Source: Promethearchaeum syntrophicum (GTDB lineage: Archaea; Asgardarchaeota; Lokiarchaeia; Sigyniarchaeales; Promethearchaeaceae). From it: a DNA stretch of 32,000 nucleotides. Under the pieces are notes generated by a model, which did not search any database, had not been told where the DNA came from, and saw nothing but the letters and a program-made list of their open reading frames with translations. The DNA is taken from contig NZ_CP042905.2 in the NCBI RefSeq assembly GCF_008000775.2, positions 2,610,001 to 2,642,000 on the forward strand, read 5' to 3'. A program made the position numbers and the translations under genes. Shown here in pieces: positions 7,922 to 27,994 of this stretch (the stretch's first letter is position 1; every line of letters begins with the position of its first letter).

Positions 7922-8602
7922 TTATTTGAACATTTTTCCCGTTATTTTTTTAATTTCGATATAATCCAGGTTATCAATTTCAAAAAGATATTTCATTGTA
8001 GTTCTAATAGAACTATGACCGAGTAATTTTGAAATATCGTTAATGGGAAGACCATTTTTAATAAGAAAACTTGCATAAGTTCGCCTTAAACTATGGCTTC
8101 CTATATTATAACCTATAGAAAGGCATTGTCGAGCATATTTATTAATAAATCCGATAACCGAATTTTTTAAAAATGAACCATGTTTATTTGACTGGAAAAC
8201 ATATCCAGTTTTTCTATTTCCAATAGAATTTTTTATATCTCTAACTAATTCTTTCGGAATTGGAATCCTTCTATTACTTGAAAGTGTTTTAACTCGGAAA
8301 GATTTTAAATATTTAGTGGCATTCCTGGACTGAATTAAAACAAAACCGTTATACAAATTTAGTTGAGAAATTCCCATATTGCATAATTCACTAACTCTTA
8401 AACCTAATCCCATTTGTGTTTTAATCATTAAAGCATGTTTAAAATTTTGTTTTTCTGCAATTTGAAGTAATTCCTTTCTTTGATTTTGATTTAAAGCAAA
8501 TTTAATTTTTCGAATTTTATAAGAATTTTTTATTCCGGGATTAACCTGATAAACCGAAGGAATTAAATTTGGTGAGCCGGATAGATTATTTTCAGAAATC
8601 AT
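7922..8602 (-). CDS. Tyrosine recombinase / integrase (minimal, 226 aa)
   Basis: Catalytic signature: LGLRVSEL (Arg I), HSLRRT (His-x-x-Arg II) and LGHSSIRTTMKYL (His plus the Tyr nucleophile). There are only ~45 aa N-terminal to the catalytic domain. Confidence 0.85.
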   Translation of the reverse strand: MISENNLSGSPNLIPSVYQVNPGIKNSYKIRKIKFALNQNQRKELLQIAEKQNFKHALMIKTQMGLGLRVSELCNMGISQLNLYNGFVLIQSRNATKYLKSFRVKTLSSNRRIPIPKELVRDIKNSIGNRKTGYVFQSNKHGSFLKNSVIGFINKYARQCLSIGYNIGSHSLRRTYASFLIKNGLPINDISKLLGHSSIRTTMKYLFEIDNLDYIEIKKITGKMFK

Positions 8603-10433: not shown

Positions 10434-10748
10434 TTAAGAGATAATTACTTTTTTTCGTAATTTCCAATTATTTTTTAATATTATTGCAGGACCAAAAACA
10501 TGAACTTCTTCTGGTTCTAATTGAACTTCAAAGCCTTCAATATCATCATGAATACTTTTCAAATAAAATGGAATCGGAGTATCCACACAATGCCTACTTG
10601 AATTACAAAAATCAATATTTGATAATAATAATTCTATATCCTGAGATACTTTTGATAATTTTTTTCTGATATTATTTCTCATTTTTGCTTCGTATTCAGG
10701 ACTTATTTTTTTTCCTTCTAAAAATTCGCGTTCGGTTTTTGATAACAT
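10434..10748 (-). CDS. Hypothetical protein (104 aa from ATG MLSKTEREFLEG...)
   Basis: AAGGTG lies 6 nt upstream of the ATG at 10748. The track start at 10757 is GTG, inside that SD. Confidence 0.45.
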   Translation of the reverse strand: MLSKTEREFLEGKKISPEYEAKMRNNIRKKLSKVSQDIELLLSNIDFCNSSRHCVDTPIPFYLKSIHDDIEGFEVQLEPEEVHVFGPAIILKNNWKLRKKVIIS

Positions 10749-10758
10749 ATTTTTCACC

Positions 10759-11112
10759 TTAAACTTCTTTCATCCATTCTGAAAGGTTTGATAAGAAATT
10801 TCCAAATACATTAACGTTTGAAAACATGTCCTTAACTTCCAGTTCTAACATTCTCATATTTGAAGTTTTATCGCCTTTTCCCCCAATTGCAATTTTCTTT
10901 AATCCCCTTAAAGTATCAATAGACATTTTGAATGGATTAATCTCATATTTACCTTTCTTTTGGAAGTGTGGTTTTATTTCTTCCGAAATTTTCTTTTTTG
11001 CTTTAATACCAGGAAGAGTATTTTTTTTCTTTGTTTGTAATCTTTCTTGTTCTAACCTTTCTCTTTCTTCCAGTTCTAATTTTGCTTTTCTTAATTTATC
11101 TGCAATATTCAT
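10759..11112 (-). CDS. Hypothetical basic coiled-coil protein (117 aa from ATG MNIADKLRK...)
   Basis: AAGGAG lies 10 nt upstream of the ATG at 11112. The stop of the upstream gene is 1 nt before this ATG. Confidence 0.45.
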   Translation of the reverse strand: MNIADKLRKAKLELEERERLEQERLQTKKKNTLPGIKAKKKISEEIKPHFQKKGKYEINPFKMSIDTLRGLKKIAIGGKGDKTSNMRMLELEVKDMFSNVNVFGNFLSNLSEWMKEV

Positions 11113-11113
11113 T

Positions 11114-11422
11114 TTAATCAATCTCCTTTTCAATTTTTTCCATTGCCTTAAAGTCTTGTTCGGAAGTTAATTTTAAAAACGGTTCTATTTCTATTGCTTT
11201 TTCAAAGAGTTTCAAAATTTGATTTAATGATTCTTTAATTTCATCATTCACTTTACTATTCACTTTACTTTCTGCTTTACTTTCAGTTGGATTATTTCTG
11301 TCTTTAATTCGTTTAATTGTTCTACTAGAAACACCTAATTTCTCGGTTGTTTCTATATATGTATGATTCTTTAGATAATCCAACACTTTCTTATCATTTT
11401 CTTGATTTATTTTGCGAGGCAT
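11114..11422 (-). CDS. Helix-turn-helix DNA-binding protein, 102 aa
   Basis: The N-terminus DYLKNHTYIETTEKLGVSSRTIKRIKDR is a typical HTH. It is the first gene of a three-gene minus-strand unit next to attR. Confidence 0.5.
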   Translation of the reverse strand: MPRKINQENDKKVLDYLKNHTYIETTEKLGVSSRTIKRIKDRNNPTESKAESKVNSKVNDEIKESLNQILKLFEKAIEIEPFLKLTSEQDFKAMEKIEKEID

Positions 11423-11843: not shown

Positions 11844-12428
11844 CTATTTAAGCATTCTATTACCAATTTCATTGAAAAGTTCTTCTACACCATTACTATT
11901 CAAAGCAGATGTCTTAATAAAGTAATCAATATTGAAATCGTTTTTACACTGTTCTATTTCATCTGGAGAAATTGCTATAGAATTATTTGAAACTAAATCT
12001 TCTTTTGTTCCTACTAAGAAGAATTTTACATTCTTATTCCCCCATACACCCCCTTCTTTTAAAATATCAATCCAATCATATAATCTCTTAAGAGTAGGAA
12101 GCCTAGCTAAATCAAAACATAAAACTACCCCTTCAGCACCCCGAACATAATCCTTCAATATAAACCTAAATCGTTCCTGCCCTGCAAAATCCCAAAGTAA
12201 CAAATTAATATGATTAATATTTTTCTCATCAGTTTTTTCAATTTTTTTCATGAAAAAATCTGATCCTATTGTCATTTTGGTTGAATCTACAAAGATATTA
12301 CTAACGGTTCTATGCAATAAAGTAGTTTTTCCAACTCCTCCTTCCCCAAGTATCACTATTTTTTTCTGGATGTTTCGAATAACTTTTTGATCTTCGCTCA
12401 CTGTAAGTTGATTGATATTTGATTGCAT
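11844..12428 (-). CDS. Rab/Ras-like small GTPase
   Basis: G1 GEGGVGKTT, G2 MTIGSDF, G3 WDFAGQERF, G4 GTKED (NKxD variant) and G5 TSAL. No C-terminal Cys prenylation motif. I prefer the ATG at 12428 (the track start at 12437 is TTG). Confidence 0.85.
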   Translation of the reverse strand: MQSNINQLTVSEDQKVIRNIQKKIVILGEGGVGKTTLLHRTVSNIFVDSTKMTIGSDFFMKKIEKTDEKNINHINLLLWDFAGQERFRFILKDYVRGAEGVVLCFDLARLPTLKRLYDWIDILKEGGVWGNKNVKFFLVGTKEDLVSNNSIAISPDEIEQCKNDFNIDYFIKTSALNSNGVEELFNEIGNRMLK

Positions 12429-12697
12429 TGTTATCAAGGAGATAGTTAGTAAATTGACATTTATTATAGCTTTATTGAAAAAATTCTATGAATAATTTGT
12501 AAATATTGTGAATAATTATTCGTTTTTTCTCCGTGAAATGCTTAATTTCAGAAATTTCGATAAATGAAGCATTTTCTACAAAAGTGTTAAGGATGATATT
12601 TACGTTTGAAAAATGTATAATTATTGATAGAAGTATAGAAATTAGACGGTATATCATTTTTTTATACACAAAACAAAACCTTCGGATCAAACTAAAA

Positions 12698-15600
12698 ATG
12701 AAATCTAAACATATTATGCTTTCTTATTCTAAAATATTTTTCAAATCAGCAAGTTTTCTTATAATTTTACTTGTAACCTTTTCTCAATATTCAATTTTAC
12801 ATTTTGATAATTCTAATTCAAACCAATCTTTTGTAAATAACGAAGATGATTTAACAAACATCAATAAAAACGCACCGCAATCGGCTCAAGATTTTATAGA
12901 TTTCGAGAATGCCCCATTGTTATTCCGTATTCATGAGAAAGGTTATATAGATGATAGAGTTGCTGCAAATTTATGGTATGAAGGATTCCTCCATAGCGTT
13001 GATTATATGTGTTATTTATCAATTAACAATGGGGAAGTTTGGGCACTAGAACAATTCAATGTTGTAAAAAGTTTAACAAACTTGACAGAATTTGTTGATG
13101 GAGATTTTACACGGCAACTAGTAGCTGAGTCAATAGTCCAACACCCAGAAGAAGATGTTTATGTAAAAAATCAGATAAAACTTTATCCAGATGAGGAATT
13201 TTTTGTGATGACATATATGATTTGGAGTGAAACAATTAATATAACGAGTGCAGAACTTTTTTTTTATAATGATCTGGATATTGATGAAACATTCAATGAT
13301 GATAATGCTGATTACGATCCTTCGACAGAATTAATTTACTCTTCCGATAAGTTCACTCATACATCCTTAGGGTGGATTTCAACGTATCCTATTTCTTCAT
13401 GGGATTTAGGACCCTATACTATAATAGAAGATAATGTTATAAATGATGCTTTAGGAGAAACAATCTCAGATTATGGAGATATTTCCTTAGCAACAAAATA
13501 TGAAAAGAAAAATTTCAATGAAAATGAAACTTGGGTTGTTCCCCTAATTTATGGATTTGCAACATCAGAAGCAGATCTTTATACAAAAACAGTTGATATT
13601 AAGAATCAATTTATTGATGATTTCTCAGTCTTAGATTTTACAGCAAATCTAACAGATAATCCTTCGGTAAATGCAACAATTTTAAATGGAGGCCAAAATG
13701 AATTAACACGAAACGTTAGCGTTTTTAGAAATGGAACATACCTTCAAAGCCAAGAGATTACATTATTACCAGGTGAACTTGATACTAATGTAACTTTTGA
13801 TAATCTATTACTTAATCCTGGTGAATATAATGAGATAACTGTTTTAATAAATGATATTATTAATGATTATCAGCCGAATAATGAAATTTCTCACACTTAT
13901 TTATATCAAGAAAGATTTAGAATTAATATTAAAGATCTTGATGGATTTGATGTAGAGGGATTGAATGTTTCTTTATATCATAATGTTTCTAAAGCATTGA
14001 TCCATTCAGCATTTACCGATGAATTTGGTAATGCAACTTTTGTTGATCTTCCAGAAAATAATTACACTCTAAAAGCATATGCTCCTTGGATGAATGAAAA
14101 CCATCAATTAATTTATGAAGAAAATTTTACTTACCCTGATGTGGGAGATTTTTATCAAATTCAATCCAATTTAACTACATTGATACTCCATATTATGGAT
14201 GTTGAAGATAATTCAGTAGAAAGTGCATCTATCGATATATATGAGAATTTTGAACCTGAAACTATTATATGGTCAGGATTAACTGATCAAAATGGCAATA
14301 TAACTTTTCTATTTTTAAATCAGACATATGATATTAATGTTACATACTTCAATTATGAAAAATCATTATTATTAGAACCAATATTAGATCTAAGCCTAAT
14401 AGAAAAAACTAACCGAACTCATCAAGTTTCATTAACTAATTTAACATTTCATCTTAAAAATAGAAATATTGCTAGTCCAACAAATTTAACTGGTGCAAAA
14501 CTTGAATTTTATGAAAAAGTTAATTCAACTTCATTCGGGAATTATATTGGTTTTGATTTAGTAGATTTGATTGAAAATGTAAGTATTTACTGGGATGCGC
14601 GTATAAATTATTCAATTCGAGTTATTTTTTTTGGTGGATATTGCCCAATCGGAGACCCAGAAGCGGAATCATTAAATTTTACAGAATCTCCATACAACTC
14701 ATATTATTATCTTGTTTTTAATGTGTCTATAGAGGATTATGATTATTTAACAGAAATTATTTCTTTTAATTTACCACCAATCATTTATACTTGGGAGGAT
14801 AATATAGATTTTAAATTTATGATAAATGTGTCGGGTCCTGACTATGAAGGACCAAAATATGCGGATGAGACATTTATCAGAATCCAAAACCAAAACTTTG
14901 AAACTGTTTATGATGGGAATGCCACAAATATAGATGGTCAGCTGGGAAACCATAGTTTTGTATTAAACACTTCAAGCGGAATTTTTACATCTGATAATCC
15001 TGAAACGTATTTTTTAAGAATATTCGCACAAATCGAAAGTTATGATAATCCAGCATCTATTTTACTTCCATTTAGTATTTACAATATCACCACAGATATG
15101 GATTTGCATTCTTCATCTGAAACCTTATATTGGAAAGATAATTTCACGATTTCAGCTAATTATTTTAATGCGCTAGATAACGAGAAGATAATAAAAGATG
15201 GATATGCCACTGTATCTTGGGGCCAAAATTTTATAAATTACCCCATGCAAAATCTAGGAAACGGTACATATACAATTGAGATAAATTCATCAATAGGTTC
15301 TCCAGGTAATAGCATTGTTAACGTGAAATGTTATAGAGAAAACTATAATGTACAAGAAAGGAAATTTTATTTAAATGTGATGGAAGTCCCAACTACCGTG
15401 AATGGCTCAATTTTATTTGGTTCTGGTCATTCTCAATTTGTTTCTACCCAAAATTTAACGTTAGATTATAATTTTATTGATTCTTATCGAAATATTTCAA
15501 TTCCTGATCTTTCTCCAATGTATTCGATAATTAATTCAGAAACTGATGAGCAGTATACTGGATATTTAACAACTAATGAATCTGGTTTTTATTCATTTGA

Positions 15601-16591
15601 TCCTAAATCATCCTTGTTACCAATTGGGACATATCACGGTTTAATAGATTTTAGTTTAGAAAATTATCAATCAAGTTATGCGAGTGTTCAACTTGATATA
15701 CTTCCTATACCTTTATCTTTAACACTTGAAGGGGGAACAAGTGAAGTTGAAAATGATCTTGAAATATCCCCTGATTACAATATTGAAAGAGGGGAACAGT
15801 TCTATTTTAGTTTAGATATATTAGATATTTATGATAATCCAGTTGAAAATTGTACTATTACATATATATTAAAATTCACAGAAGATAACGAAACCAAGAA
15901 AGGAGATCTTCTAACAGACAACATGGGACACTACTTTGGAAATTTTCCAGAATTATCAAGAATTGGATTATATTCTTTATCATTAACAGTTAGTAAAGCA
16001 AATTATACAGAGGAAACTTATCAATTTTATATTGATGTTGAATATGAAACCCCTATTGGTGATATTCCTCTTCCGTATTTAATTGTAGGCGCAATGATGT
16101 TATTGATAGCAATTTCTGCGGTTGCAGGATATGCGGGTATTAAGAGAATTAGAATTCCTAAATATATCAAAGATCTTACAAAACTTGAGAAAATCCTTAA
16201 AAACACAAATAATGTTCTTCCCGAGCGATATCCGACTCGGATTGAACAATTAGAGGAAAAATATGGAAATAGATGGGTCCAGATAGATTTTAAATTCCCT
16301 CTACAACCACATATTGATGATATTAAAATTTTTATCAATACATATCAAGCAATAACGGGAAAATTATTCTTGAAAGAAGAAGCAAAGCAATTTTTAGATG
16401 ATTTAGTGATATATTCTGAAGAAGAAATTAAACGTCGTCTTGAAGGAGAAAGAATTTTTGGTGAAAACCTTTCAAAATTAATGGAAATTATACTTAATTA
16501 TATCCAAATTACAAATACTCAGCACGATCTTAAAACTGATTCCAGCATAGTTAAAGATGATTTTGATCTAGAATTTGGAGATGAAAAATAA
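12698..16591 (+). CDS. Giant type-I-like surface protein: N-terminal signal/anchor, ~1090-aa sequon-rich ectodomain with carboxypeptidase-regulatory-like beta-sandwich repeats, one C-terminal TM helix and a 149-aa cytoplasmic tail
   Basis: The start MKSKHIMLSYSKIFFKSASFLIILLVTFSQYSIL is hydrophobic. I count 41 N-x-S/T sequons by hand. CarboxypepD_reg-like segments lie at about 13915-14090 and 14186-14356. The TM helix LPYLIVGAMMLLIAISAVAGYAGI (16070-16141) is followed by KRIRIPKY. Confidence 0.75.
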   Translation: MKSKHIMLSYSKIFFKSASFLIILLVTFSQYSILHFDNSNSNQSFVNNEDDLTNINKNAPQSAQDFIDFENAPLLFRIHEKGYIDDRVAANLWYEGFLHSVDYMCYLSINNGEVWALEQFNVVKSLTNLTEFVDGDFTRQLVAESIVQHPEEDVYVKNQIKLYPDEEFFVMTYMIWSETINITSAELFFYNDLDIDETFNDDNADYDPSTELIYSSDKFTHTSLGWISTYPISSWDLGPYTIIEDNVINDALGETISDYGDISLATKYEKKNFNENETWVVPLIYGFATSEADLYTKTVDIKNQFIDDFSVLDFTANLTDNPSVNATILNGGQNELTRNVSVFRNGTYLQSQEITLLPGELDTNVTFDNLLLNPGEYNEITVLINDIINDYQPNNEISHTYLYQERFRINIKDLDGFDVEGLNVSLYHNVSKALIHSAFTDEFGNATFVDLPENNYTLKAYAPWMNENHQLIYEENFTYPDVGDFYQIQSNLTTLILHIMDVEDNSVESASIDIYENFEPETIIWSGLTDQNGNITFLFLNQTYDINVTYFNYEKSLLLEPILDLSLIEKTNRTHQVSLTNLTFHLKNRNIASPTNLTGAKLEFYEKVNSTSFGNYIGFDLVDLIENVSIYWDARINYSIRVIFFGGYCPIGDPEAESLNFTESPYNSYYYLVFNVSIEDYDYLTEIISFNLPPIIYTWEDNIDFKFMINVSGPDYEGPKYADETFIRIQNQNFETVYDGNATNIDGQLGNHSFVLNTSSGIFTSDNPETYFLRIFAQIESYDNPASILLPFSIYNITTDMDLHSSSETLYWKDNFTISANYFNALDNEKIIKDGYATVSWGQNFINYPMQNLGNGTYTIEINSSIGSPGNSIVNVKCYRENYNVQERKFYLNVMEVPTTVNGSILFGSGHSQFVSTQNLTLDYNFIDSYRNISIPDLSPMYSIINSETDEQYTGYLTTNESGFYSFDPKSSLLPIGTYHGLIDFSLENYQSSYASVQLDILPIPLSLTLEGGTSEVENDLEISPDYNIERGEQFYFSLDILDIYDNPVENCTITYILKFTEDNETKKGDLLTDNMGHYFGNFPELSRIGLYSLSLTVSKANYTEETYQFYIDVEYETPIGDIPLPYLIVGAMMLLIAISAVAGYAGIKRIRIPKYIKDLTKLEKILKNTNNVLPERYPTRIEQLEEKYGNRWVQIDFKFPLQPHIDDIKIFINTYQAITGKLFLKEEAKQFLDDLVIYSEEEIKRRLEGERIFGENLSKLMEIILNYIQITNTQHDLKTDSSIVKDDFDLEFGDEK

Positions 16592-17730
16592 TGCCAATTG
16601 GAATATGTTTATGGGAGTGGGATACACGTAGTGGTGCAGAGATATTAGGAACTTGGCCAAGAGATGTTAAGTTAGAAAATAAGACTTTAATGCAATTATA
16701 TTCTCAGCATTTATATAGTGCGAAAGCCGATATTGTTTCTATGTATGTAGGATCTTTAAATGTGTTAAGTATCTGGACCGGATCAATCCACAATTACTTT
16801 TTGACAATTTTATTACACCAAGATGAAGATCCAGAGAATTATTCAGATATTATTTCTGATTCTATGTATTATTTGGTTCCTTATATCCAGAAAGATATAT
16901 ACAAAACATTATTACCTTCGATATTCCAACGTTTTAAAGAATATCCAGATACAAACCTGGAACAAAGGCGAGCTATTTTATATTCAAATGAATTAAACAG
17001 ATCAATTTTAAATCTCTTGCAAGAAGAGGGAGTTTATTATAAAGATGAATTAAAAATCTGGCTTGAAGATTCTTTGAAAAAAAAGGCATTTAATTATGAA
17101 ATGGCTATTGAAAGATTGATTCATAATGATTTAATAAAAGTTTCCTCTGTGAAAGGTGTTGAAGGAACTTATGTGTTTTTAATAAATGACATAGCTTTAC
17201 TTAGAGCACCTCCGCTTGATTTAATTCGAAATTTTCAAATAAAAGGTGATTTGAACCTAAATGATGACATACTTTCCAAAATTCGAAAGTTTTTTCAATT
17301 TTATAAACCATCAGAAAGGGACAATCTTCAGATTTTGAAATTCATGGGTGATACAAATTACTATAAAATATTAAATTTCCTCAGGAAAACAAATGCTAAT
17401 GAATCTACTTTAAAAAAACTTACAATACACGGCGTAGATAATGTCTTCTCATTGATAAATGATTTAGAAAATTTAGATATTGTTGATCATGTAAAAAATA
17501 AAAATGAAGATACAATATATTTCTTAAAATCAGATATAATTATTGATAAAATGACCCCAAAATTTATGATGCGTAGATTATATGATATGAATTATGAAGG
17601 TAAAAAAAATCCTAAGTTAATTCAGAGTTATATTAAAATTTTAAAAGAAAGTTTTTATGAAAATCAAATAAAAAAAGGTAAATTTAAAAAAATAGATGAA
17701 GGTATAGTTTTGGAGGATGTATCTTCGTGA
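16591..17730 (+). CDS. Hypothetical protein: longin-like N-terminal domain plus two winged-helix-like repeats
   Basis: The ATG overlaps the upstream TAA (TAATG), and GGAG lies 10 nt upstream. The N-terminus follows a beta-beta-alpha-beta-beta-alpha pattern (IGICLWEWD / AEILGTWP / TLMQLYSQHLYS / IVSMYVGSLNVLSIW / YFLTILLH / YSDIISDSMYYLV). wH-like segments include NYEMAIERLIHNDLIKVSSVKGVEGTYVFL and NYYKILNFLRK...LINDLENLDIVDHVKNKNEDTIYFL. Confidence 0.6.
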   Translation: MPIGICLWEWDTRSGAEILGTWPRDVKLENKTLMQLYSQHLYSAKADIVSMYVGSLNVLSIWTGSIHNYFLTILLHQDEDPENYSDIISDSMYYLVPYIQKDIYKTLLPSIFQRFKEYPDTNLEQRRAILYSNELNRSILNLLQEEGVYYKDELKIWLEDSLKKKAFNYEMAIERLIHNDLIKVSSVKGVEGTYVFLINDIALLRAPPLDLIRNFQIKGDLNLNDDILSKIRKFFQFYKPSERDNLQILKFMGDTNYYKILNFLRKTNANESTLKKLTIHGVDNVFSLINDLENLDIVDHVKNKNEDTIYFLKSDIIIDKMTPKFMMRRLYDMNYEGKKNPKLIQSYIKILKESFYENQIKKGKFKKIDEGIVLEDVSS

Positions 17731-18590
17731 TTCATGAACTTATGATTGTATCCCAAGGAGGGTTATGCATATATTCCTATGAGTTTACAGAAATGCAAGT
17801 TAATCCTCAATTGGTAGCGGGATTTACTACAGCAATTGATACATTTTCCGAATCTCTTTTAGAAAGAAAACAGAATATTGATTCTCTTCAAATGACTAGT
17901 TTAAACCTAAAAATTTCGAGATTTCTTCATGATGCATTATCGATGATTATTTTTTTTAATAAATATGATAATATTGATGTCATAAATTCAATAATGATAG
18001 ATTTACAGACTCAATTTATCGAATCCTTTGGGAATTATGATCTTGAAGATTTTTTTCAGACCTCAATTCTTAAACCCTTTGACAATGTAGCAATTCCATT
18101 ATGTAACATGCATGTTGATATTGGAATGTTAAGTGTTCAATCAACATATAAATCTAAACTATGGGAACTAATCGTAAATATAAATAATAGTAGACCTAAT
18201 GAATCTTCAAATCCTGAACAAATCAAAAAAGAATCAAATACTATTGATTATATTTGCCCAAATCTTCCAAATTGTGATATTTTAATATGGAATCTTGATT
18301 TGGAAGCTGCAGAAATGAATCAAAGCATCTTTCATAATAAACAAATTTTTATTATTGTCATTGAACCCGATTTCGATTTTATTCAGAAATATATTCCAAT
18401 AATTGAAATTTTGAAAAAAAATCATAACGAATCTCTTATGATTGGTGTAATGATGACAGAAAGTGGAACAATAACAAAGAACAATATCGAAAAATTACTT
18501 CAAATCAATATTTTTGAATTAAGTATTAATGAACCGTCAGCAAAGGAGAATCTTGCAGATATAATATATAATTGCGTTCTTGGAATATAA
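17727..18590 (+). CDS. Hypothetical protein: longin/roadblock-like N-terminal domain plus a degenerate Ras-like (pseudo-GTPase) C-terminal domain
   Basis: The GTG start overlaps the upstream TGA (GTGA), and GGAGG lies 10 nt upstream. The N-terminus reads LMIVSQGGLCIYSYEF...PQLVAGFTTAIDTFSESL. The C-terminus aligns by eye to the Ras fold: ILIWNLDLEAAE (cf WDTAGQE), LMIGVMMTES (cf LVGNKxD) and ELSINEPSAKEN (cf ETSAK..N). No intact P-loop. Confidence 0.6.
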   Translation: MIHELMIVSQGGLCIYSYEFTEMQVNPQLVAGFTTAIDTFSESLLERKQNIDSLQMTSLNLKISRFLHDALSMIIFFNKYDNIDVINSIMIDLQTQFIESFGNYDLEDFFQTSILKPFDNVAIPLCNMHVDIGMLSVQSTYKSKLWELIVNINNSRPNESSNPEQIKKESNTIDYICPNLPNCDILIWNLDLEAAEMNQSIFHNKQIFIIVIEPDFDFIQKYIPIIEILKKNHNESLMIGVMMTESGTITKNNIEKLLQINIFELSINEPSAKENLADIIYNCVLGI

Positions 18591-18609
18591 TCTAAGGGTG
18601 AATATTTAT

Positions 18610-19728
18610 ATGAATAATGATTTTGAATCCAAACAAGAAATAAATAACATTTTTCTTTTAGATTTAGGTAGTTCTTTAACAAAAATAGGATTTTCATCTA
18701 ATATATATCCTAGTATAATATGTGATAGTTCTTATGGAATACCACGAATTCATGATGCAGGAAATAATTTAGAAAAAACTCAAAAAATTTATTGTGAAGA
18801 TTTAAATAATTCCACAATTTCGATAAAAAGGATAAATCTATTTACTTATTCTCAACCCAATAATTTAGAATCCATTTTTGAATTCGTTGAGCATCTATTT
18901 AATAAAATGTCCTTACCAACTAAAAACGAAGGATTAATCATTGCTTATTCAAATGAATGGTCGAATTTTTTTCTTTATCAATTACAAGCGTTTTTATTTC
19001 AGCGATTCAATTTTTCATCTATTTTACCAATTAAAACTGATTTCTTATCCCTAATCTCGCATAAAGTAAAAACCGGAGTTGTTCTTGATATTGGTCATTC
19101 TTATTCAAGAGTTATTCAATTTGATAAAGGAAAACCTCTAACAACTGCTGGATTTAAAACAAATGTTGCAGGAAAATTAATTCAAGATTATTTAATAAAA
19201 TTATATAATAATTCACATCCCTATTTACAATCACCGATTTTTGAGCCTCTAATTTCCAGTATTATTAGAGAAAAATGTTTACTTACCTTTGATATCGATA
19301 AATTACTTTCAGATCAATATTTAGATGAGATAATCTCTGAAGAAATTGAAATATCTCAGTTTAAAGAAATATTGATGTTAGGAATTGAGAAATATCTTGC
19401 CCCTGAGGTATTATTTCATCCAAAACTTGCTAATTCAAAAAATTTATCAGTTGATTCCTTAATAATTCAAAGTTTAAAAGAGTGTCATCTATCTTTACGC
19501 AGTAAAGTTTATTCAAATATTATTCTAGCTGGAGGAGGATGTGCATTTAAAAATTTTAAAGAACGACTACTTTCAATATTCTCAAAAATTCCGATGTTAG
19601 CCAATTCAAATATTTTAATTCACTTTGATCCGAGTTTAACTGTCTGGAAAGGAATGTTAGTAGCCGCTAATTCAAATTACTATGGGAAAAATGCTCAGAC
19701 ACAAAATCAATTCTTCGCTAAATTATAA
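18610..19728 (+). CDS. Divergent actin-family (Arp-like) ATPase
   Basis: LDLGSSLTKIGF (phosphate-1), GVVLDIGHSYSRVIQFDKG (phosphate-2), NVAGKLIQDYL, APEVLFHP, IILAGGGCAFKNFKERL (adenosine) and VWKGMLVAA. I prefer the ATG at 18610 with GGTG 9 nt upstream over the TTG at 18580. Confidence 0.85.
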   Translation: MNNDFESKQEINNIFLLDLGSSLTKIGFSSNIYPSIICDSSYGIPRIHDAGNNLEKTQKIYCEDLNNSTISIKRINLFTYSQPNNLESIFEFVEHLFNKMSLPTKNEGLIIAYSNEWSNFFLYQLQAFLFQRFNFSSILPIKTDFLSLISHKVKTGVVLDIGHSYSRVIQFDKGKPLTTAGFKTNVAGKLIQDYLIKLYNNSHPYLQSPIFEPLISSIIREKCLLTFDIDKLLSDQYLDEIISEEIEISQFKEILMLGIEKYLAPEVLFHPKLANSKNLSVDSLIIQSLKECHLSLRSKVYSNIILAGGGCAFKNFKERLLSIFSKIPMLANSNILIHFDPSLTVWKGMLVAANSNYYGKNAQTQNQFFAKL

Positions 19729-20279
19729 ATTATTATTCCTTGCTAAAAATATGATTTAATTAATTCATCTAAATCTTCTAAGACACTATTTTCTCTTTTC
19801 TTTTGTGTTTTTTTAAGCAATTTTTTTGATTTACGTGTATTTGAATTAATTTTTTGTTTTTTAGGCAATTGGGTCTTTAAAATTAGTCTACATTCTCCAA
19901 TTCAAATGGAACTTCTTCTGGTTTTCATTTTAGTTTTAAACTCTTATTAAAATTTCATTAATTTCACTCTTTCGGTCCAATATTTGTTTTTCAATCATGT
20001 TTAGAGCAATTTTAAGAAGAGCAACTTGAGAACTATATATGTTATGTGCATTATGACTTGAATAAAATTTAAGATTTGATTCAAAAAGATGTTTTTTTCG
20101 ATTTAATTTGTGAGTTATTTGAGAATATTTGCAAAAGAACGAAAAATACACTTTATTGGGTATATGTAGAATTTTTTTCATCATTCATACTTCATCACTT
20201 AATTGCTATATATATAATTATCTTCTGATTAAGAAGGAGAAAAAAAAAGGGAAATGTGAAAAAAATGGGGTTATAATAA

Positions 20280-21419
20280 TCATACAGCAAATGAGAATAA
20301 AATACCTATAATGGTAAAGTAAACAATCGCGATTTCTGTAGGTACATACTTCTTCTTCTTATAAAATAGCATATTTACAATAGAAGTAACCAGAATTATC
20401 ACACCAGTGAGTATCCACATACCCGTTGTTGATAAATCAATTAAAGCATGTGGAATTTGATATAGAACTTCTGCCATGAAATATGTAAAGAAGGGTTGTC
20501 TTCCAAATGCCAGTAAATAACCAAGATTCCATTTCATTTTTTTATCAAAAAACACAAATAAAAGTAAGGATAAAATTATTACTCCAAGAGATATCAAACC
20601 AAAACTAAAAGTTGAAATTCTTTTACTAGGTTCCCAACCAGGTATTAAACCAAGTAATAAGCCCACAACCAAATTAATTGCACCCAAAATGGCCATATTT
20701 GTATATTTTTTTTTTGGAGAATGTTCTGTATTAAAAATATAATCCCCAAGAGAAGCAGCAACAACTACAACACCAGAAAGTGTAAAAAATGTACCGAAAA
20801 TCCCACCATGCCACGTTAGACTTGCATAATATCCTATCGGGGTAAAGATTAAAAGAATTTGGTATAATAACATCCAGATATAAGCCGCAATTAATCGAAA
20901 TTTCGGGTCCTTAATACATATAAACGGTAGGGCAACCAATGTTGCTAATCCTAAGGAATGAAGAACATCCCATCTGGGAATTATAAAACCTGCTTCAATT
21001 TTATATTCAAATAACACACCAAAATCAAAGGAAAATTCCACCAACATCAATAGATAACCTAAAAGTAACAATAAAACACCCTTTAATACTACCCTAAGGA
21101 TTGCATTTGATGTATTTTTTTGATCTTTCCGTTTAGTGAAGGACAACACAAAAGATAATCCCAAAATAAACATAAATGCTGGAGTTCCAATATCAAAAAG
21201 GGTCATATAAGTTGCAGTTTCATCAGGATGTTGAGTTAAAAAGAATAGAAATGATCCTTCGGAAACAAAATCTTCCCATGGTTCTACCAATGTTATACAA
21301 AGAAGTAGCATAATTAAACCACGAGCTTGATCAATCCAACGCAATCTTCGACTATCTTCCTTTATTGGTAATGTAAAGGAGATTTTTTTTTTTGGTCTCA
21401 ATTCTTCTTCAACTGTCAT
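20280..21419 (-). CDS. Polytopic membrane protein, HGSNAT-like / DUF1624-DUF5009-type acyltransferase
   Basis: RLRWIDQARGLIMLLL, then H...TLFDIGTPAFMFILGLSF, fits the family N-terminal signature. I count about 10 hydrophobic segments. Confidence 0.5.
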   Translation of the reverse strand: MTVEEELRPKKKISFTLPIKEDSRRLRWIDQARGLIMLLLCITLVEPWEDFVSEGSFLFFLTQHPDETATYMTLFDIGTPAFMFILGLSFVLSFTKRKDQKNTSNAILRVVLKGVLLLLLGYLLMLVEFSFDFGVLFEYKIEAGFIIPRWDVLHSLGLATLVALPFICIKDPKFRLIAAYIWMLLYQILLIFTPIGYYASLTWHGGIFGTFFTLSGVVVVAASLGDYIFNTEHSPKKKYTNMAILGAINLVVGLLLGLIPGWEPSKRISTFSFGLISLGVIILSLLLFVFFDKKMKWNLGYLLAFGRQPFFTYFMAEVLYQIPHALIDLSTTGMWILTGVIILVTSIVNMLFYKKKKYVPTEIAIVYFTIIGILFSFAV

Positions 21420-22241: not shown

Positions 22242-23435
22242 ATGGATGAGGATATATTTGAAAAAATACTAAGAACTGAATCAGTTTTCAAAGATCAAGC
22301 CACTTTGGGACAAGCTTGGGTACCGAAGAAAAATCAAAAACTTCTCGCTCGAGATTCAGAAATTAAGAAACTCACAGCAATTCATCGTCCAATTATCGAT
22401 ACTGAAGGTTCCTATTCTGTTAATACTCTTGTTTTAGGAATTGGTGGAATAGGAAAGACATTAACTGTTCGTTTTTTTGGGAGAAGATTTCGCGAAGCAG
22501 TTCTCAAACGGGATATTAAACTTACGATTGAATACTACGATTGTTTACAACATCGGACTAAAAGTTCAATATTGAGAAATATTTCTGAAAGATTACATTA
22601 TAGCGCAGGTCATGGGTATTCCGATAATGAGATAATGGAACAAATTTTGAAAGAACTGAGAAAACGTGAAGAATCTCTTTTAATTATTTTAGATGAAGTT
22701 CATAATTTGTCTTCAGATGATATTCTTGCTTTATTTAATGCATCAATTGGTTTTGGAGAAGCCAATACTCGATTTTGTATCATCGCGATTTCAAGACCTA
22801 CAGACTGGTACAAAGTAGACAATGAAAAAATTTCAAGCAGAACTCAAGATATTCTTAGAATGGAACAATATTCTAAAGATGAAGCTATGGAGATTATGAA
22901 ATATAGAAGGAATTTGGCTTTTCGTGAAGGAGTTTTGGAAGATGATAACTTAGAATTAATTACCGATATAGTTACAGAAAATAAAAATATGAGAATTGGA
23001 ATAGATATGATGAGAGCTTGTGGGATTCGGGCAGACGAACATGGGTTATCATCAATTAATAGTGAGATGATTTTAGAATCTCGAAATTTGATAAATCCAA
23101 CCTTTCGCGCAGATGTAATTGATAATTTACGCCTTCATGAACAAGTTGCACTATGGTCTGTAGCAAAATCATTGCTTAATAGTGGAGAACCTTATACTAA
23201 AGTTGAAGAAACATACGAAATCTATCAAATGTTATGTGAGGATCTAAAAATTAAACCACACGTGAGTATGAGTTTTAGAAAATACATTCGCAATCTAGCA
23301 GATGTAAAAGCGATTCATAAAGATTATTTAAATCCAACGATAGAAAAAAAAGGACGCCAATTAGAAATTAAATTGACTGATATTAGTGCAGATAAGTTAT
23401 GTGAATATTTTGAAAAGAATATTCCTCATGAATAA
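22242..23435 (+). CDS. cdc6: Orc1/Cdc6 replication initiator (AAA+ with C-terminal winged helix)
   Basis: Walker A LGIGGIGKTLTV and Walker B LLIILDEVHNL. Overall length and layout are typical of archaeal Orc1/Cdc6. Confidence 0.85.
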   Translation: MDEDIFEKILRTESVFKDQATLGQAWVPKKNQKLLARDSEIKKLTAIHRPIIDTEGSYSVNTLVLGIGGIGKTLTVRFFGRRFREAVLKRDIKLTIEYYDCLQHRTKSSILRNISERLHYSAGHGYSDNEIMEQILKELRKREESLLIILDEVHNLSSDDILALFNASIGFGEANTRFCIIAISRPTDWYKVDNEKISSRTQDILRMEQYSKDEAMEIMKYRRNLAFREGVLEDDNLELITDIVTENKNMRIGIDMMRACGIRADEHGLSSINSEMILESRNLINPTFRADVIDNLRLHEQVALWSVAKSLLNSGEPYTKVEETYEIYQMLCEDLKIKPHVSMSFRKYIRNLADVKAIHKDYLNPTIEKKGRQLEIKLTDISADKLCEYFEKNIPHE

Positions 23436-23455: not shown

Positions 23456-24451
23456 TTATCGATCTTTTTTTCCTGTTAAAGGATTAGTATCGGGATCAGC
23501 AAAATAATCAAAATCATAATGGATTTGATTAATACGAATAAGTTCGGTTAGCATCTGGATCACTGCTTGCATATTAGGACGATCTGCGGGTTCAAATTGC
23601 GTTAATCGCTCAACAATTTCATTATAACTTTCTGGTAAGTACCAATTGATTTCTTTAGGATGTAGAACCCAAGAGTCCTTATCTAAGAGTTCTGAATCTT
23701 CTCGCATGATCCCGCCTGTAAAAACAAAGTACATCAAATGGGCAAGATAATAAATATCAGAAGCTGCTACAGGTATGTACCCAAAACGTACCTCGGGAGG
23801 AGCCCCCTTTTGAGTGATTGGGATATCTCGTAGCATTTCATCAGACATAAAAGGTTTAGGAGTATATTGAATCCAATCAGGCCCAACATGCTTAGAAATG
23901 CCCCAATCAATTAGGACTGGAATGAATTCTCCATGTTCTTTTCCCTTTTGAATGATTATATTTTCTACAGAAACATCCCTATGGACAATATTTTCTTTGG
24001 TGTGGCAATAATCTAATAATTTTGCAATAGGGATGAAAATTTCTCTAACCATACTCGCAAGGTCGAGATGCTTCATTCCTCGGCTTTTTTGAATAAACTC
24101 CAAATAAAAATCTAAAAAAGTCATACCTTCAATGTAATTCAGAACAATATAATACTCTGGAGTTTGATATTTAATTTTTTTTTCATAATGTAAAACTTTC
24201 ACACAATTATAACCAGACCGAGCCTGAGCTTGAGTATTTAAAATCTCATTTTCCCAATACTCCTCACAATCATTACTCCTTGTATATTTATCATAAAATT
24301 GTTTATAAAGAAAATCTTTTATTGCAACTTTTTTCTTAGTTTCACGCTCAATTGCCAAATAAACAGTTGATAGTCCTCCTTTACCTAAAACTTTTTGAAC
24401 ATCAAAAATAATTTTGTCAATTTCTATAGGCTTTCCAACCGTTATTGGCAT
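23456..24451 (-). CDS. Hanks-type Ser/Thr protein kinase
   Basis: GKGGLSTVY...VAIKDF, HRDVSVENIII, DWG (DFG variant), APPE and ...PADRP. AAGGAG lies 9 nt upstream of the ATG. Confidence 0.85.
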   Translation of the reverse strand: MPITVGKPIEIDKIIFDVQKVLGKGGLSTVYLAIERETKKKVAIKDFLYKQFYDKYTRSNDCEEYWENEILNTQAQARSGYNCVKVLHYEKKIKYQTPEYYIVLNYIEGMTFLDFYLEFIQKSRGMKHLDLASMVREIFIPIAKLLDYCHTKENIVHRDVSVENIIIQKGKEHGEFIPVLIDWGISKHVGPDWIQYTPKPFMSDEMLRDIPITQKGAPPEVRFGYIPVAASDIYYLAHLMYFVFTGGIMREDSELLDKDSWVLHPKEINWYLPESYNEIVERLTQFEPADRPNMQAVIQMLTELIRINQIHYDFDYFADPDTNPLTGKKDR

Positions 24452-25300: not shown

Positions 25301-27994
25301 TTATAATATTTGACTTAGTAAATCGCTTAGATCGTTAATTGAAAATGGTTTAGGTAAGACTCCATTAAAACCATATTTTTTATAATCAGCCATTATTGGA
25401 TCATTTGAGTAGCCAGAAGAAACAATTACTTTAACACTACTATCAAAATTTCTTAGATTTTTTATAGTTTCTTTTCCGCCGAGACCCCCAGCTATTGTTA
25501 AATCCATAATAACACAACTAACTTCTTTTTGAGAATCTTTCAAGTTCCGATACACTTTTAGAAATTCTTTACCCTCACTTGTAATAATTACGTTATATCC
25601 TAAACGATTCAATAATTTCAAGAAAAGGGTTTGAATAAAATTTTCATCATCCATTACAATAATTGTTTTGCCTTTTCCCTCTAAAAGGGGTTTTTCTTTC
25701 ATTTCGGTATTTTCTTTTGTTTTTGTTGAAGATGCTGGCAATAATATATAAAATATAGAACCTTGTCCACTCACAGAGTCAACGGTAATTTTTCCACCAT
25801 GATTTTTCATTATCGAATAGCAAACTGAAAGTCCAAGACCAGATCCCTTTTGTTTAGTTGTAAAATAAGGATCAAAGATTTTAGTTAAATATTCATCTGG
25901 AATACCAATACCTTGATCCATAATCGAAATTTGTACAAAATATTTACCAGAAAGAGATGGTTCATCTATAGATTCTTCAATAACAACATTTTTTGCCTCA
26001 ACTATCACATTCCCCCCATTCGGCATCGACTGATCTGCATTTATTACGATATTATTAATAACTTGACTTATTTGTCCTTCATCGATATCAACATTCCAAA
26101 GATCTGGGGCAATTCGAATGAAACTTTTAGATTTAGAGCCTCGAAGAGCGAAATGAATGGTTTCTCCAATCAAAGATTTGATTGAAATAATTTTTTTTAT
26201 CGGAGTTCCACCTTTTGAGAAAGTTAACAGTTGTTTTGTTAGCTTATTTGCGCGGTATGTAGCATTAATGGTTTGATCGATAATGTTAGAGAGATTAGAT
26301 GTTTTATCTTTAACTTCTATTTGTGCAATGGATAAATTTCCGAGGATGGCAGTTAAGATATTATTAAAATCGTGGGCAATTCCACCTGCTAAGATACTAA
26401 TAGATTCCATTTTTTGAGTTTTTAAAATTTCTCTTTCTAATTTCTTCTTTTCATCATTATCTCGAATAACTATAACTGATCCAATAGTTTTTTCAGATTT
26501 ATCTAAGATTGGACTTCCTTTAATAGCAATTTCCTTCTTTTTATCATATTTATTCGTTAATATTAGGTTATCTGAAAGTTCAAATTTTGGTAATTTATTG
26601 AACTCAAACCTCTCATTAGATATTGTATCAGTAATATTCAAAATTTCATTAATATCCCGAGTTAATGTTTCATTCTGGTTATATCCGGTTAATTCTTCCG
26701 CTACTTTGTTATATATTACTATTTTACCATCAATATCTGTGGTTATAACTCCATCCCCAATACTTGCAAGGGTTACTGATAGTCGTTCTTTTTCTTCTTC
26801 TAATTGTTTTTCTGCATCTTTTCGTTCTGCAATATCTTTTGTATGTAATAAAATTGAATTCGGAGGGACATAAGCAAAATGCGCTTCGAGGATTGAGGTT
26901 TTTCCAGTTGAAAGAAATGTAAAGGTAAATTCTGAACTATGACTTGTCTTTTCTTTAAAAGTTTTTATCATTACTTCAAAAATATTATTATATCCTCTTT
27001 CAGTAAAAAATTGACTTGCTTTCATACCGATTAATTTTTTTAATTTCCCTTCAGTATATCGATCAGCAGCTTCATTTATTCTTACAAGTTTAAAATCTTC
27101 CCCAATATAATCCCAGGCGTATGTTGGGAGAGGATAACTATTAAAAAGCTGTTTATACATCTCATTTTTTTCTACGGTAACCCTTTCAATTAATTTTCGT
27201 TCAGTAATATCCCGAACTATCGCTTGTAAAAATTTTTTGCCTTTTAATTCTATAAGGTTCAATGTTACCTCTGCAAAAAAGGGAGTTCCATCTAAAGTTG
27301 AATGAAGCCATTCAAAAAATTGCGGTTCTCCTGAGAACGCTTTTGTAATATAGATTAAAGCTTTTTCTTTTGAATCAATTCCATCAGGTTGAAATTCTGG
27401 AGAAAATTTATATGGAGGATGGTTTATTATTTCATCTCTTTTACAGTTGAATAAATCGAGGGTCTTTTGATTACAATCAATGAAAATATCGTTATCCATT
27501 AAAAATATTGCATCATTAGCAGTTTCAAATAGAGTATGGTATTTTCTCTCCATATCCCGTATTTGTGTTATCTCAGTGATTATTGCCATGCTTCCAATTA
27601 AATTTCCTTTAGAATCATATAAACCACTTGCAGAAATGATGACATATGCTATTCTATCATCTTTGGTCTTAAACGCGATCTCATATTTACTAACGTCTTT
27701 GCCACTTTCTCGTTCATAAGTTTCTTTTCTAAATAGGTCCTTAAATTCTTCAGAGATGAAATCAATTACTTTGAATCCAATTAATTCATTTCTAGAATAT
27801 TTAAGAAGTTCACTGAATCTATCATTAATATATATAAGCTTATCTTCTTTATCACTAATTGCAATCGATTCATTAACAAATTCAAAGATATCTTTAAATT
27901 TTAACTCAAATTCTCTTAAAATATATTGTTCATTAATTTCTTTGTTAATAAAAGGAGTTCTTTTCTTTCCCTTTTTTTTCCGATCTCGATCCAA
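25301..27994 (-). CDS. Cytoplasmic hybrid sensor histidine kinase (four PAS-like domains, HisKA, HATPase_c, receiver)
   Basis: H-box [18 protein letters not shown]-box [16 protein letters not shown]-boxes DQGIGIP and GSGLGLS. Receiver motifs are [20 protein letters not shown] and LPKPF. TTG start with GGGGT 8 nt upstream. Confidence 0.9.

Follow-up and report, generated by a model that had tools for sequence, protein, structure and literature searches.

A four-gene operon of Promethearchaeum syntrophicum as a candidate platform between a giant surface protein and a divergent actin homologue

Promethearchaeum (Prometheoarchaeum) syntrophicum MK-D1 is a cultured Asgard archaeon with a 4.32-Mb chromosome, of which we analysed one stretch of 32,000 nucleotides (hereafter the window; G+C content ~27%). 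Within it lie four consecutive plus-strand genes, DSAG12_02896 to DSAG12_02899, which encode a giant type-I surface protein, two smaller proteins with predicted longin domains and a divergent member of the actin family. We consider it an even call whether these genes are a clade-specific, four-gene elaboration of a cassette found in Lokiarchaeia, serving as a platform that couples the surface protein to the actin homologue. This reading draws on a conserved operon, on the folds of its products, on a degenerate G domain and on the strict pairing of the surface protein's tail with its adaptor, which extends to gene fusions. The operon and its principal parts are as follows.

12698-16591, plus strand: DSAG12_02896, giant type-I surface protein, ATG at 12698, 1297 aa
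16076-16144, plus strand: its single C-terminal transmembrane (TM) helix, ~aa 1127-1149, ...LIVGAMMLLIAISAVAGYAGI..., from a hydropathy scan
16145-16588, plus strand: its conserved cytoplasmic tail, 148 aa, from tail alignments
16591-17730, plus strand: DSAG12_02897, 379 aa, predicted longin domain, two winged helices and a basic C-terminal helix, from AlphaFold2 and Foldseek
17727-18590, plus strand: DSAG12_02898, 287 aa, predicted longin domain (~aa 1-120) and Ras-like pseudo-GTPase domain (~aa 126-287)
18610-19728, plus strand: DSAG12_02899, 372 aa, divergent actin-family ATPase, from Pfam Actin

GenBank labels the 379-aa, 287-aa and actin-like products 'hypothetical' and the giant protein 'carboxypeptidase-like regulatory domain-containing protein'; the fifth product considered here, DSAG12_02895, is encoded on the other side of the giant gene and is called 'Rab family GTPase'. 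An original prediction, made from the DNA sequence alone, had joined all five into one module. Its operon geometry was re-found in full, every gene and junction lying where it had been placed: the giant and 379-aa genes overlap in TAATG (16589-16593), the 379-aa and 287-aa genes overlap in GTGA (17727-17730), and a 19-nt gap carrying GGGTGA separates the 287-aa gene from the ATG of the actin-like gene at 18610. A mechanical open reading frame (ORF) of the giant gene opens at GTG 12533 (1352 aa), as does the older model QEE17064.1; ATG 12698 is kept in relatives, agrees with the revised GenBank model QEE17064.2 (1297 aa) and, on alignment, appears to be the better start. A 103-aa antisense ORF within the giant gene (16027-16338, minus strand) is presumably a spurious product of AT-rich sequence.

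The giant protein has the layout that had been predicted for it, a surface protein with a single C-terminal TM helix and a cytoplasmic tail. It carries an N-terminal hydrophobic signal, a sequon-rich beta-sandwich ectodomain (41 N-x-S/T sequons vs 16.8 +/- 3.6 in shuffles; Pfam CarboxypepD_reg, 7e-10), one C-terminal TM helix and a tail of 148 aa. Together with the gene behind it, it represents a core unit that recurs well beyond MK-D1. Scanning species-representative genomes with a profile of the 379-aa family retrieved 223 loci, nearly all of them in metagenome-assembled genomes (MAGs) of Promethearchaeota, and we surveyed 87 stretches (86 loci and the window) with ORF calls and hidden Markov models (HMMs). 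The unit is a giant type-I surface protein gene followed by a 379-family gene: about 100 of 106 379-family genes in the survey stretches start 0-4 nt after the gene of a 1200-1950-aa protein. These giant proteins carry an N-terminal signal, one C-terminal TM helix, whose location is common to all of them, and a tail, and the cassettes often stand in tandem. Conversely, 94 of the 99 ORFs with the tail motif [RK]IPx[FY][IV]K...W..[LI][GD][LI] have a 379-family gene directly behind them. The window carries both this motif and a 379-family gene, with a gap of 0 nt.

In five genes from four MAGs the tail and the 379-family protein are fused in frame. Four tail-motif ORFs that lack a separate 379-family gene behind them, and a fifth gene, in locus L072, are such fusions, reading '...LGLSLEEIFG...KPIGLILMKWDERIGTEI...'. 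The MAGs include WORC5, DZ2S.393 and DZ1M.447, and the fusion genes occupy the following positions of their loci.

L058, 1-2133
L072, 2-3652
L078, 2-2995
L078, 3155-11092
L083, 2-2800

Such fusions are classically taken as a sign that two proteins are coupled, physically or functionally. The pattern of conservation points the same way: among 53 complete two-gene cassettes, mean pairwise identity is 71% for the 379-family proteins and 52% for the tails, vs 28% for the ectodomain taken as a whole and 31% for its membrane-proximal part. The difference between tail and ectodomain, the 94/99 pairing and the fusions all favour the proposal that the tail docks the first longin protein.

The window tail, for which sequence searches returned no Pfam or PDB match, falls into three stretches. 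Next to the membrane lies a basic motif, RIPKYIKDLTKLEKILKN...YGNRW..ID, which all cassettes have in common; then come ~70 aa that are specific to the clade (FI..YQ.ITGKL.LKEEAKQ.LDDL.IYSE.EIK.RLE...LMEIILNYI), and the tail closes with the acidic DDFDLEF. It can be aligned with 7 long and 69 short tails. The short form (76-81 aa) reads [RK]IPx[FY][IV]K...SLLYPSKEE...GDKW..LGLSL.DILG; the long form, that of the window's clade (146-159 aa), consists of RIPRYIKDLTKLEKILKN...YGNRW..ID, the ~70-aa extra segment and DDFDL.F. The charges of tail and adaptor are complementary, the longin domain of the 379 family being acidic (median isoelectric point, pI, 4.3) and the juxtamembrane tail basic; the family as a whole is also acidic (median pI 5.2; winged-helix segments 5.3-6.3). 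In two close relatives of the window the giant gene is split into two ORFs (L087, 4872-8865, 412 and 882 aa; L089, 1271-4923, 577 and 599 aa), which could reflect a frameshift, pseudogenisation or an assembly error.

Sequence searches with the 379-aa protein gave no Pfam family at E <= 1 (for 38 family members, none relevant at E <= 10), no match to the Pfam NPR2/NPR3 profiles and no PDB match, Nprl2/3 included; the best match in profile searches was the archaeal helix-turn-helix (HTH) regulator PH1932 (E 0.027). We turn to its structure, for which an AlphaFold2 model built from a 38-sequence alignment reached a predicted local distance difference test score (pLDDT) of 86 and a predicted template modelling score (pTM) of 0.81. 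Its N-terminal domain has the order b-b-a-b-b-b-a (E4-11, E15-22, H30-43, E47-53, E56-62, E69-76, H81-100), followed by two a-a-a-b-b winged-helix units at ~134-206 and 242-321 and a C-terminal helix. The best Foldseek match was a yeast SEAC-EGOC chain (7.9e-4), ahead of Fuzzy (3e-3) and chains of human GATOR1 complexes (5e-3 to 2e-2); TM-scores over the full chain being low, the fold call is one of domains. Longins of Ykt6, VAMP7, Sec22b and Lst4 and a Thorarchaeota roadblock protein followed (prob 0.97-0.99, E 0.02-0.08), as did winged-helix proteins of the ArsR/SmtB/CadC type. Going by the model and these weak matches, the protein probably combines a longin domain with two winged helices, the architecture of NPRL2/3. 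An arginine, R13, is invariant in the longin domain of the family; NPRL2/NPRL3 are themselves characterised by an arginine finger, through which they stimulate hydrolysis by a Rag GTPase when bound to DEPDC5.

The 287-aa protein and its family members have no direct Pfam match and no PDB sequence match, and a profile search of 1.84 billion representatives returned only 12 close relatives. In the structural model residues 126-287 (pLDDT ~70-84) gave 194 Foldseek matches at E <= 1e-3, nearly all to small GTPases (Rac, Rab, Cdc42, Rho, Rag; TM-score TMt up to 0.63). The same profile search found distant relatives that are colinear over their full length (E 4e-13 to 7e-6): Arf/Ras/Roc GTPases with a colinear N-terminal domain, which in several of them matches Pfam Fuz_longin_1 (best 2e-8) or Clat_adaptor_s. 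Intu_longin_1, Sybindin and, weakly, SRPRB are further Pfam matches among these longin relatives, and by such transitive homology the N-terminus of the 287-aa protein would be a longin domain. The G motifs of the active relatives are replaced in the 287 family, GxxGVGKT by S.QS.YK[ST] and WDxxGQ by WN.D.E, and in place of NKQD there is no NKxD (TESG); the degenerate replacements of G1, G3 and G4 are conserved across the family. Because these three motifs are lost, we file the protein as a pseudo-GTPase, and judged by its motifs it is a longin-pseudoGTPase.

DSAG12_02899 is recognised by Pfam Actin (2e-27) and by searches against actins (1e-24 as a single sequence, 4e-41 as a profile). It is colinear with actin over residues 14-357 and keeps the phosphate-1, phosphate-2 and adenosine motifs (LLDLGS..TK, VLDIGH, GGGC). 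D18/G20, G162 and G308-310 are invariant in its subfamily; D160 is present in DSAG12_02899 and is N in some members. The nearest eukaryotic actin in a large protein database is 22% identical, and solved actins score ~90 bits. The subfamily consists of 12 clusters, after which there is a gap to 22% identity; all members whose context is known lie in the four-gene operon, and a metagenome scan with the subfamily profile added one close relative, the remainder being generic actins. Identity with Lokiactin was considered and rejected, similarity to eukaryotic actin being too low. We treat the protein as a divergent actin resembling the actin-related proteins (ARPs), a placement by similarity, not phylogeny. 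The structural assignments of the original prediction, a longin-like protein with tandem winged helices, a longin with a degenerate Ras-like domain and a divergent actin/Arp-like protein, are thereby all borne out.

The order of the four genes, predicted to extend beyond MK-D1, is repeated in no fewer than five other lineages, where the flanking genes are unrelated, which marks it as more than chance. The loci concerned are L001/L002 (379-like proteins 66% identical), L007/L008, L009/L010/L015, L014, L011-13 and L087-89, and the 287-like proteins of L007/L008 and L009/L010/L015 are 38-40% identical. In a neighbour-joining tree of 91 distinct 379-family proteins all four-gene operons fall into one clade, with tails of 146-159 aa; within the larger family of two-gene cassettes the four-gene form is a derived clade, which gained its longer tail together with the pseudo-GTPase and the actin.

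In the sister clade the cassette is accompanied by a convergent gene for a protein of 345-350 aa, and at two further loci the same family is found downstream on the same strand. These proteins consist of an N-terminal domain of ~120 aa, which matches the 287-family profile weakly, an Arf-like GTPase (GFSGVGKTT, WDFAGQEQ, GNKQD) and a C-terminal helical extension of ~90 aa; the versions in L062 and L080 are longer (441-476 aa). All 13 of the 13 genes of this family in the surveyed loci flank a cassette, and their intact motifs suggest an active GTPase. The GTPase link that is conserved in the cassette family is this longin-Arf-like fusion, degenerate in the window's clade as the 287-aa protein. 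Longin-Arf-like genes lie at the following positions of their loci.

L021, 2442-3497, minus strand
L022, 11003-12043, minus strand
L023, 17329-18366, minus strand
L033, 8359-9405, minus strand
L053, 1-458, minus strand
L055, 16811-17851, minus strand
L064, 53-1105, minus strand
L082, 4153-5193, minus strand
L085, 4569-5606, minus strand
L059, 11258-12070, plus strand
L062, 6669-8099, plus strand
L080, 3408-4733, plus strand

A scan of viral contigs for the 379 family found none, so the cassette is no obvious cargo of viruses or mobile elements. Two cassette contigs are in bacteria-labelled MAGs (L030, Nanopelagicaceae bacterium; L069, Hyphomicrobiales bacterium), most likely because Lokiarchaeial contigs contaminated those bins. 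A few 379-family genes, which form a small clade, lack an upstream giant gene (L040, 4377-5489; L041, 4352-5455; L046, 3550-4653; L066, 4282-5385); each is preceded, 78-205 nt upstream, by a 210-aa ORF in which no TM helix was detected, and each lies ~4.5 kb before a normal cassette.

In the platform that we propose, the surface protein, heavily N-glycosylatable and with a fast-evolving ectodomain, would be anchored by its one C-terminal TM helix, and its conserved basic tail would be the docking site for the translationally coupled, acidic longin-winged-helix protein. There the 379-aa protein may pair with the longin-pseudoGTPase, forming a nucleotide-independent platform after the model of a longin/roadblock dimer holding a G domain. 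The platform could then recruit, anchor or nucleate the actin homologue, for which either the added tail segment or the acidic terminus may provide the contact. In this way a private actin-like polymer, if the actin homologue does polymerise, would be coupled to an adhesin or receptor facing outwards, and the module may control that filament. The purpose could be positioning, clustering or the bearing of force, for example at protrusions or cell-cell contacts.

Several observations weigh against this reading. A GTPase-like gene and an actin gene are both missing from most cassettes, which makes the actin link an addition specific to its clade. In the actin homologue the residues aligned to actin Q137 and H161 differ. 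The Foldseek E-values of the 379-aa protein are weak, with one match at <= 1e-3 and low full-chain TM-scores, and the N-terminal domain of the 287-aa model (first 112 residues) is of low confidence (pLDDT 34-60). Comparison of the 379 family with the 287/longin-GTPase family by hhalign detected no similarity between their N-terminal domains, and we therefore do not describe the two proteins as paralogous longins. Finally, co-transcription of the four genes is presumed from their spacing, and oligo-T runs, which could mark the end of the transcript, are also present inside the operon.

The original prediction had placed the Rab-like GTPase in the module, as the partner in a five-gene arrangement, as sharing a 270-bp divergent promoter region with the operon, and as the substrate of a longin pair acting as guanine nucleotide exchange factor (GEF) or GTPase-activating protein (GAP). 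The features that bear on these claims, and those at the ends of the operon, are listed here.

11844-12428, minus strand: Rab-like small GTPase DSAG12_02895, 194 aa from ATG
12429-12697: intergenic spacer between the GTPase and giant genes, 269 bp
12577-12697, plus strand: conserved promoter-proximal region, from an alignment of three close relatives
19790-19865, plus strand: terminator-like oligo-T cluster after the last gene

Its identity as a Rab/Ras-like GTPase stood: DSAG12_02895 matches Pfam Ras (2e-36), its nearest solved structures are Rab11 (Rab11B), Rab1 (Rab1a) and a Thorarchaeota Rab, and Imachi et al. (PMC7015854) list it among the Rab-like eukaryotic signature proteins (ESPs). 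A longin pair that regulates this GTPase and relays surface signals to the actin homologue would suit the divergent adjacency across the 269-bp spacer, the intact P-loop (GEGGVGKT) and switch II (WDFAGQE; G4 is TKED, a variant of NKxD), and the habit of eukaryotic longin dimers to regulate GTPases (PMC3747258); the cassette of L053 also has a divergent upstream GTPase gene, though one of the longin-Arf family. We nevertheless find such a relay improbable. At L087, L088 and L089, which are 85-87% identical, the giant gene is preceded by CMD, DUF3368 or TIR-NLR and not by a GTPase, and the more distant four-gene operons (L001, L007, L009, L014) have no adjacent Ras gene; at other cassettes generic Ras genes are 2.6-8 kb distant. 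Synteny by blastn with all three close relatives begins at window position 12576, reaching 28516 in the longest, and nothing upstream is shared; the break falls within the spacer that was taken for a common promoter region. Further upstream, a gene of the phage-integrase family (7922-8602, minus strand; Pfam 7.6e-27) and a trio of small genes, of which one is HTH_28, in a region that includes 10434-11422 (minus strand), suggest a variable or mobile segment. No tRNA genes were found in the window. Everything left of 12576 gives the impression of a variable segment that is specific to the strain and may have been integrated. Because it is missing from the relatives and synteny breaks within the intergenic region, the Rab-like GTPase is no member of the module but a strain-specific neighbour by chance, on the far side of a rearrangement breakpoint; its proposed parts in the arrangement, in the promoter and as a substrate are not supported.

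Three further explanations keep the operon and change its purpose. The longin-winged-helix protein might read the tail as a sorting signal, in the manner of the sigma and mu subunits of adaptor protein (AP) complexes, and direct the surface protein to protrusions, vesicles or blebs, with the longin-(pseudo)GTPase as a switch and the actin homologue as the source of track or force. The tail has short linear motifs with acidic/leucine patterns (LGLSLEDILG, DDFDLEF), distant longin relatives of the 287-aa protein match Clat_adaptor_s, Sybindin and SRPRB, an Arf-like GTPase with intact motifs stands beside one cassette clade, and MK-D1 does form vesicles and protrusions (PMC7015854). However, the neighbourhoods examined contain no coat, tether or SNARE-like gene, the GTPase domain of the window's clade is without G motifs, and a covalent fusion of adaptor and tail suits a permanent complex over transient sorting; we regard sorting as unlikely, if far from negligible. 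Alternatively, the tail could sequester the winged-helix protein as an anti-sigma factor does sigma, engagement of the ectodomain freeing a regulator of transcription. Two winged-helix domains with PH1932 as best profile match (E 0.027), Foldseek matches to ArsR/SmtB-type repressors and the one-to-one genetic pairing with a membrane protein speak for this signalling to DNA. Its small probability reflects the acidity of the 379 family (median pI 5.2; winged-helix segments 5.3-6.3), the fusions to a membrane protein, which would block release barring proteolysis, and the winged-helix repeats of NPRL2/3, which accompany a longin without an established role at DNA (PMC3747258). A device for biogenesis or quality control, in which the cytosolic partners are a chaperone or targeting factor for the giant protein (like SR-alpha SRX with SR-beta), would be in keeping with translational coupling and with the weak SRPRB matches of distant longin-GTPase relatives. 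Yet the N-terminal signal sequences of the giant proteins are ordinary, the tail is the last part to emerge and does so after translocation, the adaptor is C-terminal to the tail in the fusions, and the actin homologue would have no obvious role, which leaves this the most improbable explanation of all.

Returning to the four-gene operon and its borders, ~120 bp before ATG 12698 are conserved among the three close relatives, and sequence upstream of ~12577 is unalignable. In this promoter-proximal region, which may act as the promoter of the operon, a TGATATTTACGTTTGAAAA block is invariant and a box resembling TTTTTATA lies ~35-45 nt before the ATG of the giant gene. Runs of six or more T number four in the 207 nt beyond 19728 vs eight in the 7-kb operon, and the cluster there could work as a terminator. 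Downstream synteny in the three closest relatives takes in an HGSNAT-like gene, Orc1/Cdc6, a kinase and a PAS histidine kinase. The first of these (20280-21419, minus strand), convergent to the operon, encodes a multi-pass membrane protein that weakly matches HGSNAT_cat/Acyl_transf_3 and is conserved in L088 and L089 and not in L001, L007 or L009; that it modifies surface glycans is speculative. Beyond it lie Orc1/Cdc6 (22242-23435, plus strand), a eukaryote-like Ser/Thr kinase (23456-24451, minus strand) and a large PAS-histidine kinase-receiver hybrid (25301-27994, minus strand); in genomes further removed, these genes showed no link to the operon.

Longin and roadblock proteins, small GTPases and relatives of actin abound in Asgard genomes, and hardly any has been linked to a concrete cellular partner. 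This locus offers a hard-wired set of partners in the cultured MK-D1, with the fusions and ~220 cassettes as comparative data, and bears on the long-standing question of how trafficking and cytoskeletal ESPs of Asgard archaea are joined to the membrane and to the contacts between cells that eukaryogenesis models invoke. The locus also supplies candidates for the complex densities that cryo-electron tomography has shown on the surface of Lokiarchaea (PMC9834061). More broadly, and tentatively, since we think it possible and on the whole doubtful, Lokiarchaeia may possess a pre-eukaryotic device in which hypervariable surface adhesins or receptors act through a constant tail and an NPRL2-like adaptor on a longin-Arf-like GTPase or, by clade, on a pseudo-GTPase and a private actin filament. 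If true, it would be a forerunner of integrin-like linkage of receptor, adaptor and cytoskeleton, or of the recognition of cargo tails by adaptors.

Among known systems, NPRL2/NPRL3 of GATOR1/SEACIT, whose architecture is a longin domain and two or more winged HTH repeats (PMC3747258), resemble the 379-aa protein in domain order, in the GATOR1/SEAC chains among its best Foldseek matches and in working as a longin pair beside a G domain. Unlike them, the 379-aa protein lacks an NPR2/NPR3 match, a DEPDC5-like partner (no such gene occurs in the neighbourhoods examined) and a Rag-type GTPase in its operon, and is genetically tied, sometimes fused, to a transmembrane surface protein. Liu et al. 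(10.1101/2020.10.19.343400) described NPRL2-like longins in Asgard archaea and a LAMTOR1-like/Rab-like/DENN operon, and found most ESP genes to be without conserved neighbourhoods; the neighbourhood presented here is not among theirs, as far as the accessible portion of that paper goes. With the Asgard longin/roadblock-GTPase modules, among which are also longin-GTPase fusions and Rag-like GTPases, the operon shares the 287-aa protein, a colinear, distant relative of longin-Arf-like fusions of which an intact-motif member flanks the sister-clade cassettes. The window differs in having lost G1, G3 and G4 and in adding a giant membrane protein and an actin homologue, both absent from the operons that Liu et al. 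described. Structures of Asgard Rab, roadblock and longin proteins have been solved (Tran et al., PMC10933270).

Fuzzy-Inturned (CPLANE) is likewise close in parts: Fuzzy is a top Foldseek match of the 379-aa protein, Fuz_longin_1 and Intu_longin_1 match relatives of the 287-aa protein, and CPLANE stably holds an atypical small GTPase (PDB 7q3e, titled 'CPLANE-RSG1 complex'). In contrast to Fuzzy-Inturned and Mon1-Ccz1, each window protein has one longin domain and not three, and full-chain superposition gives a root-mean-square deviation of ~20 A and a TM-score of ~0.25; membership of these tri-longin GEFs was rejected on the single longin domain per protein. The actin homologue finds its counterparts in Lokiarchaeum ossiferum, which has one Lokiactin, a close sister of actin, as well as complex surface proteins and three ARPs to which no role has been assigned (Rodrigues-Oliveira et al., PMC9834061). 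DSAG12_02899 is, like those ARPs, a divergent actin-fold protein in a Lokiarchaeon, but its subfamily is tiny (12 clusters) and always operon-linked to a surface protein where the context is known. The putative S-layer proteins of Imachi et al. (PMC7015854) are PKD-domain proteins, a different family from DSAG12_02896. To integrin with talin or kindlin, and to cargo tails with AP complexes, the likeness may be one of functional analogy, in that a type-I membrane glycoprotein with a short conserved tail is combined with a dedicated cytosolic adaptor and a protein of the actin family; beyond the generic longin fold, neither the tail nor the adaptors showed homology to talin, kindlin or AP subunits. 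We found no published description of the cassette, its locus tags or its accessions, in literature whose coverage is incomplete, so that a prior description is possible. Taken together, the parts belong to known fold families, and it is their combination, a surface protein, an NPRL2-like adaptor, a longin-(pseudo)GTPase and an actin, that appears to be new.

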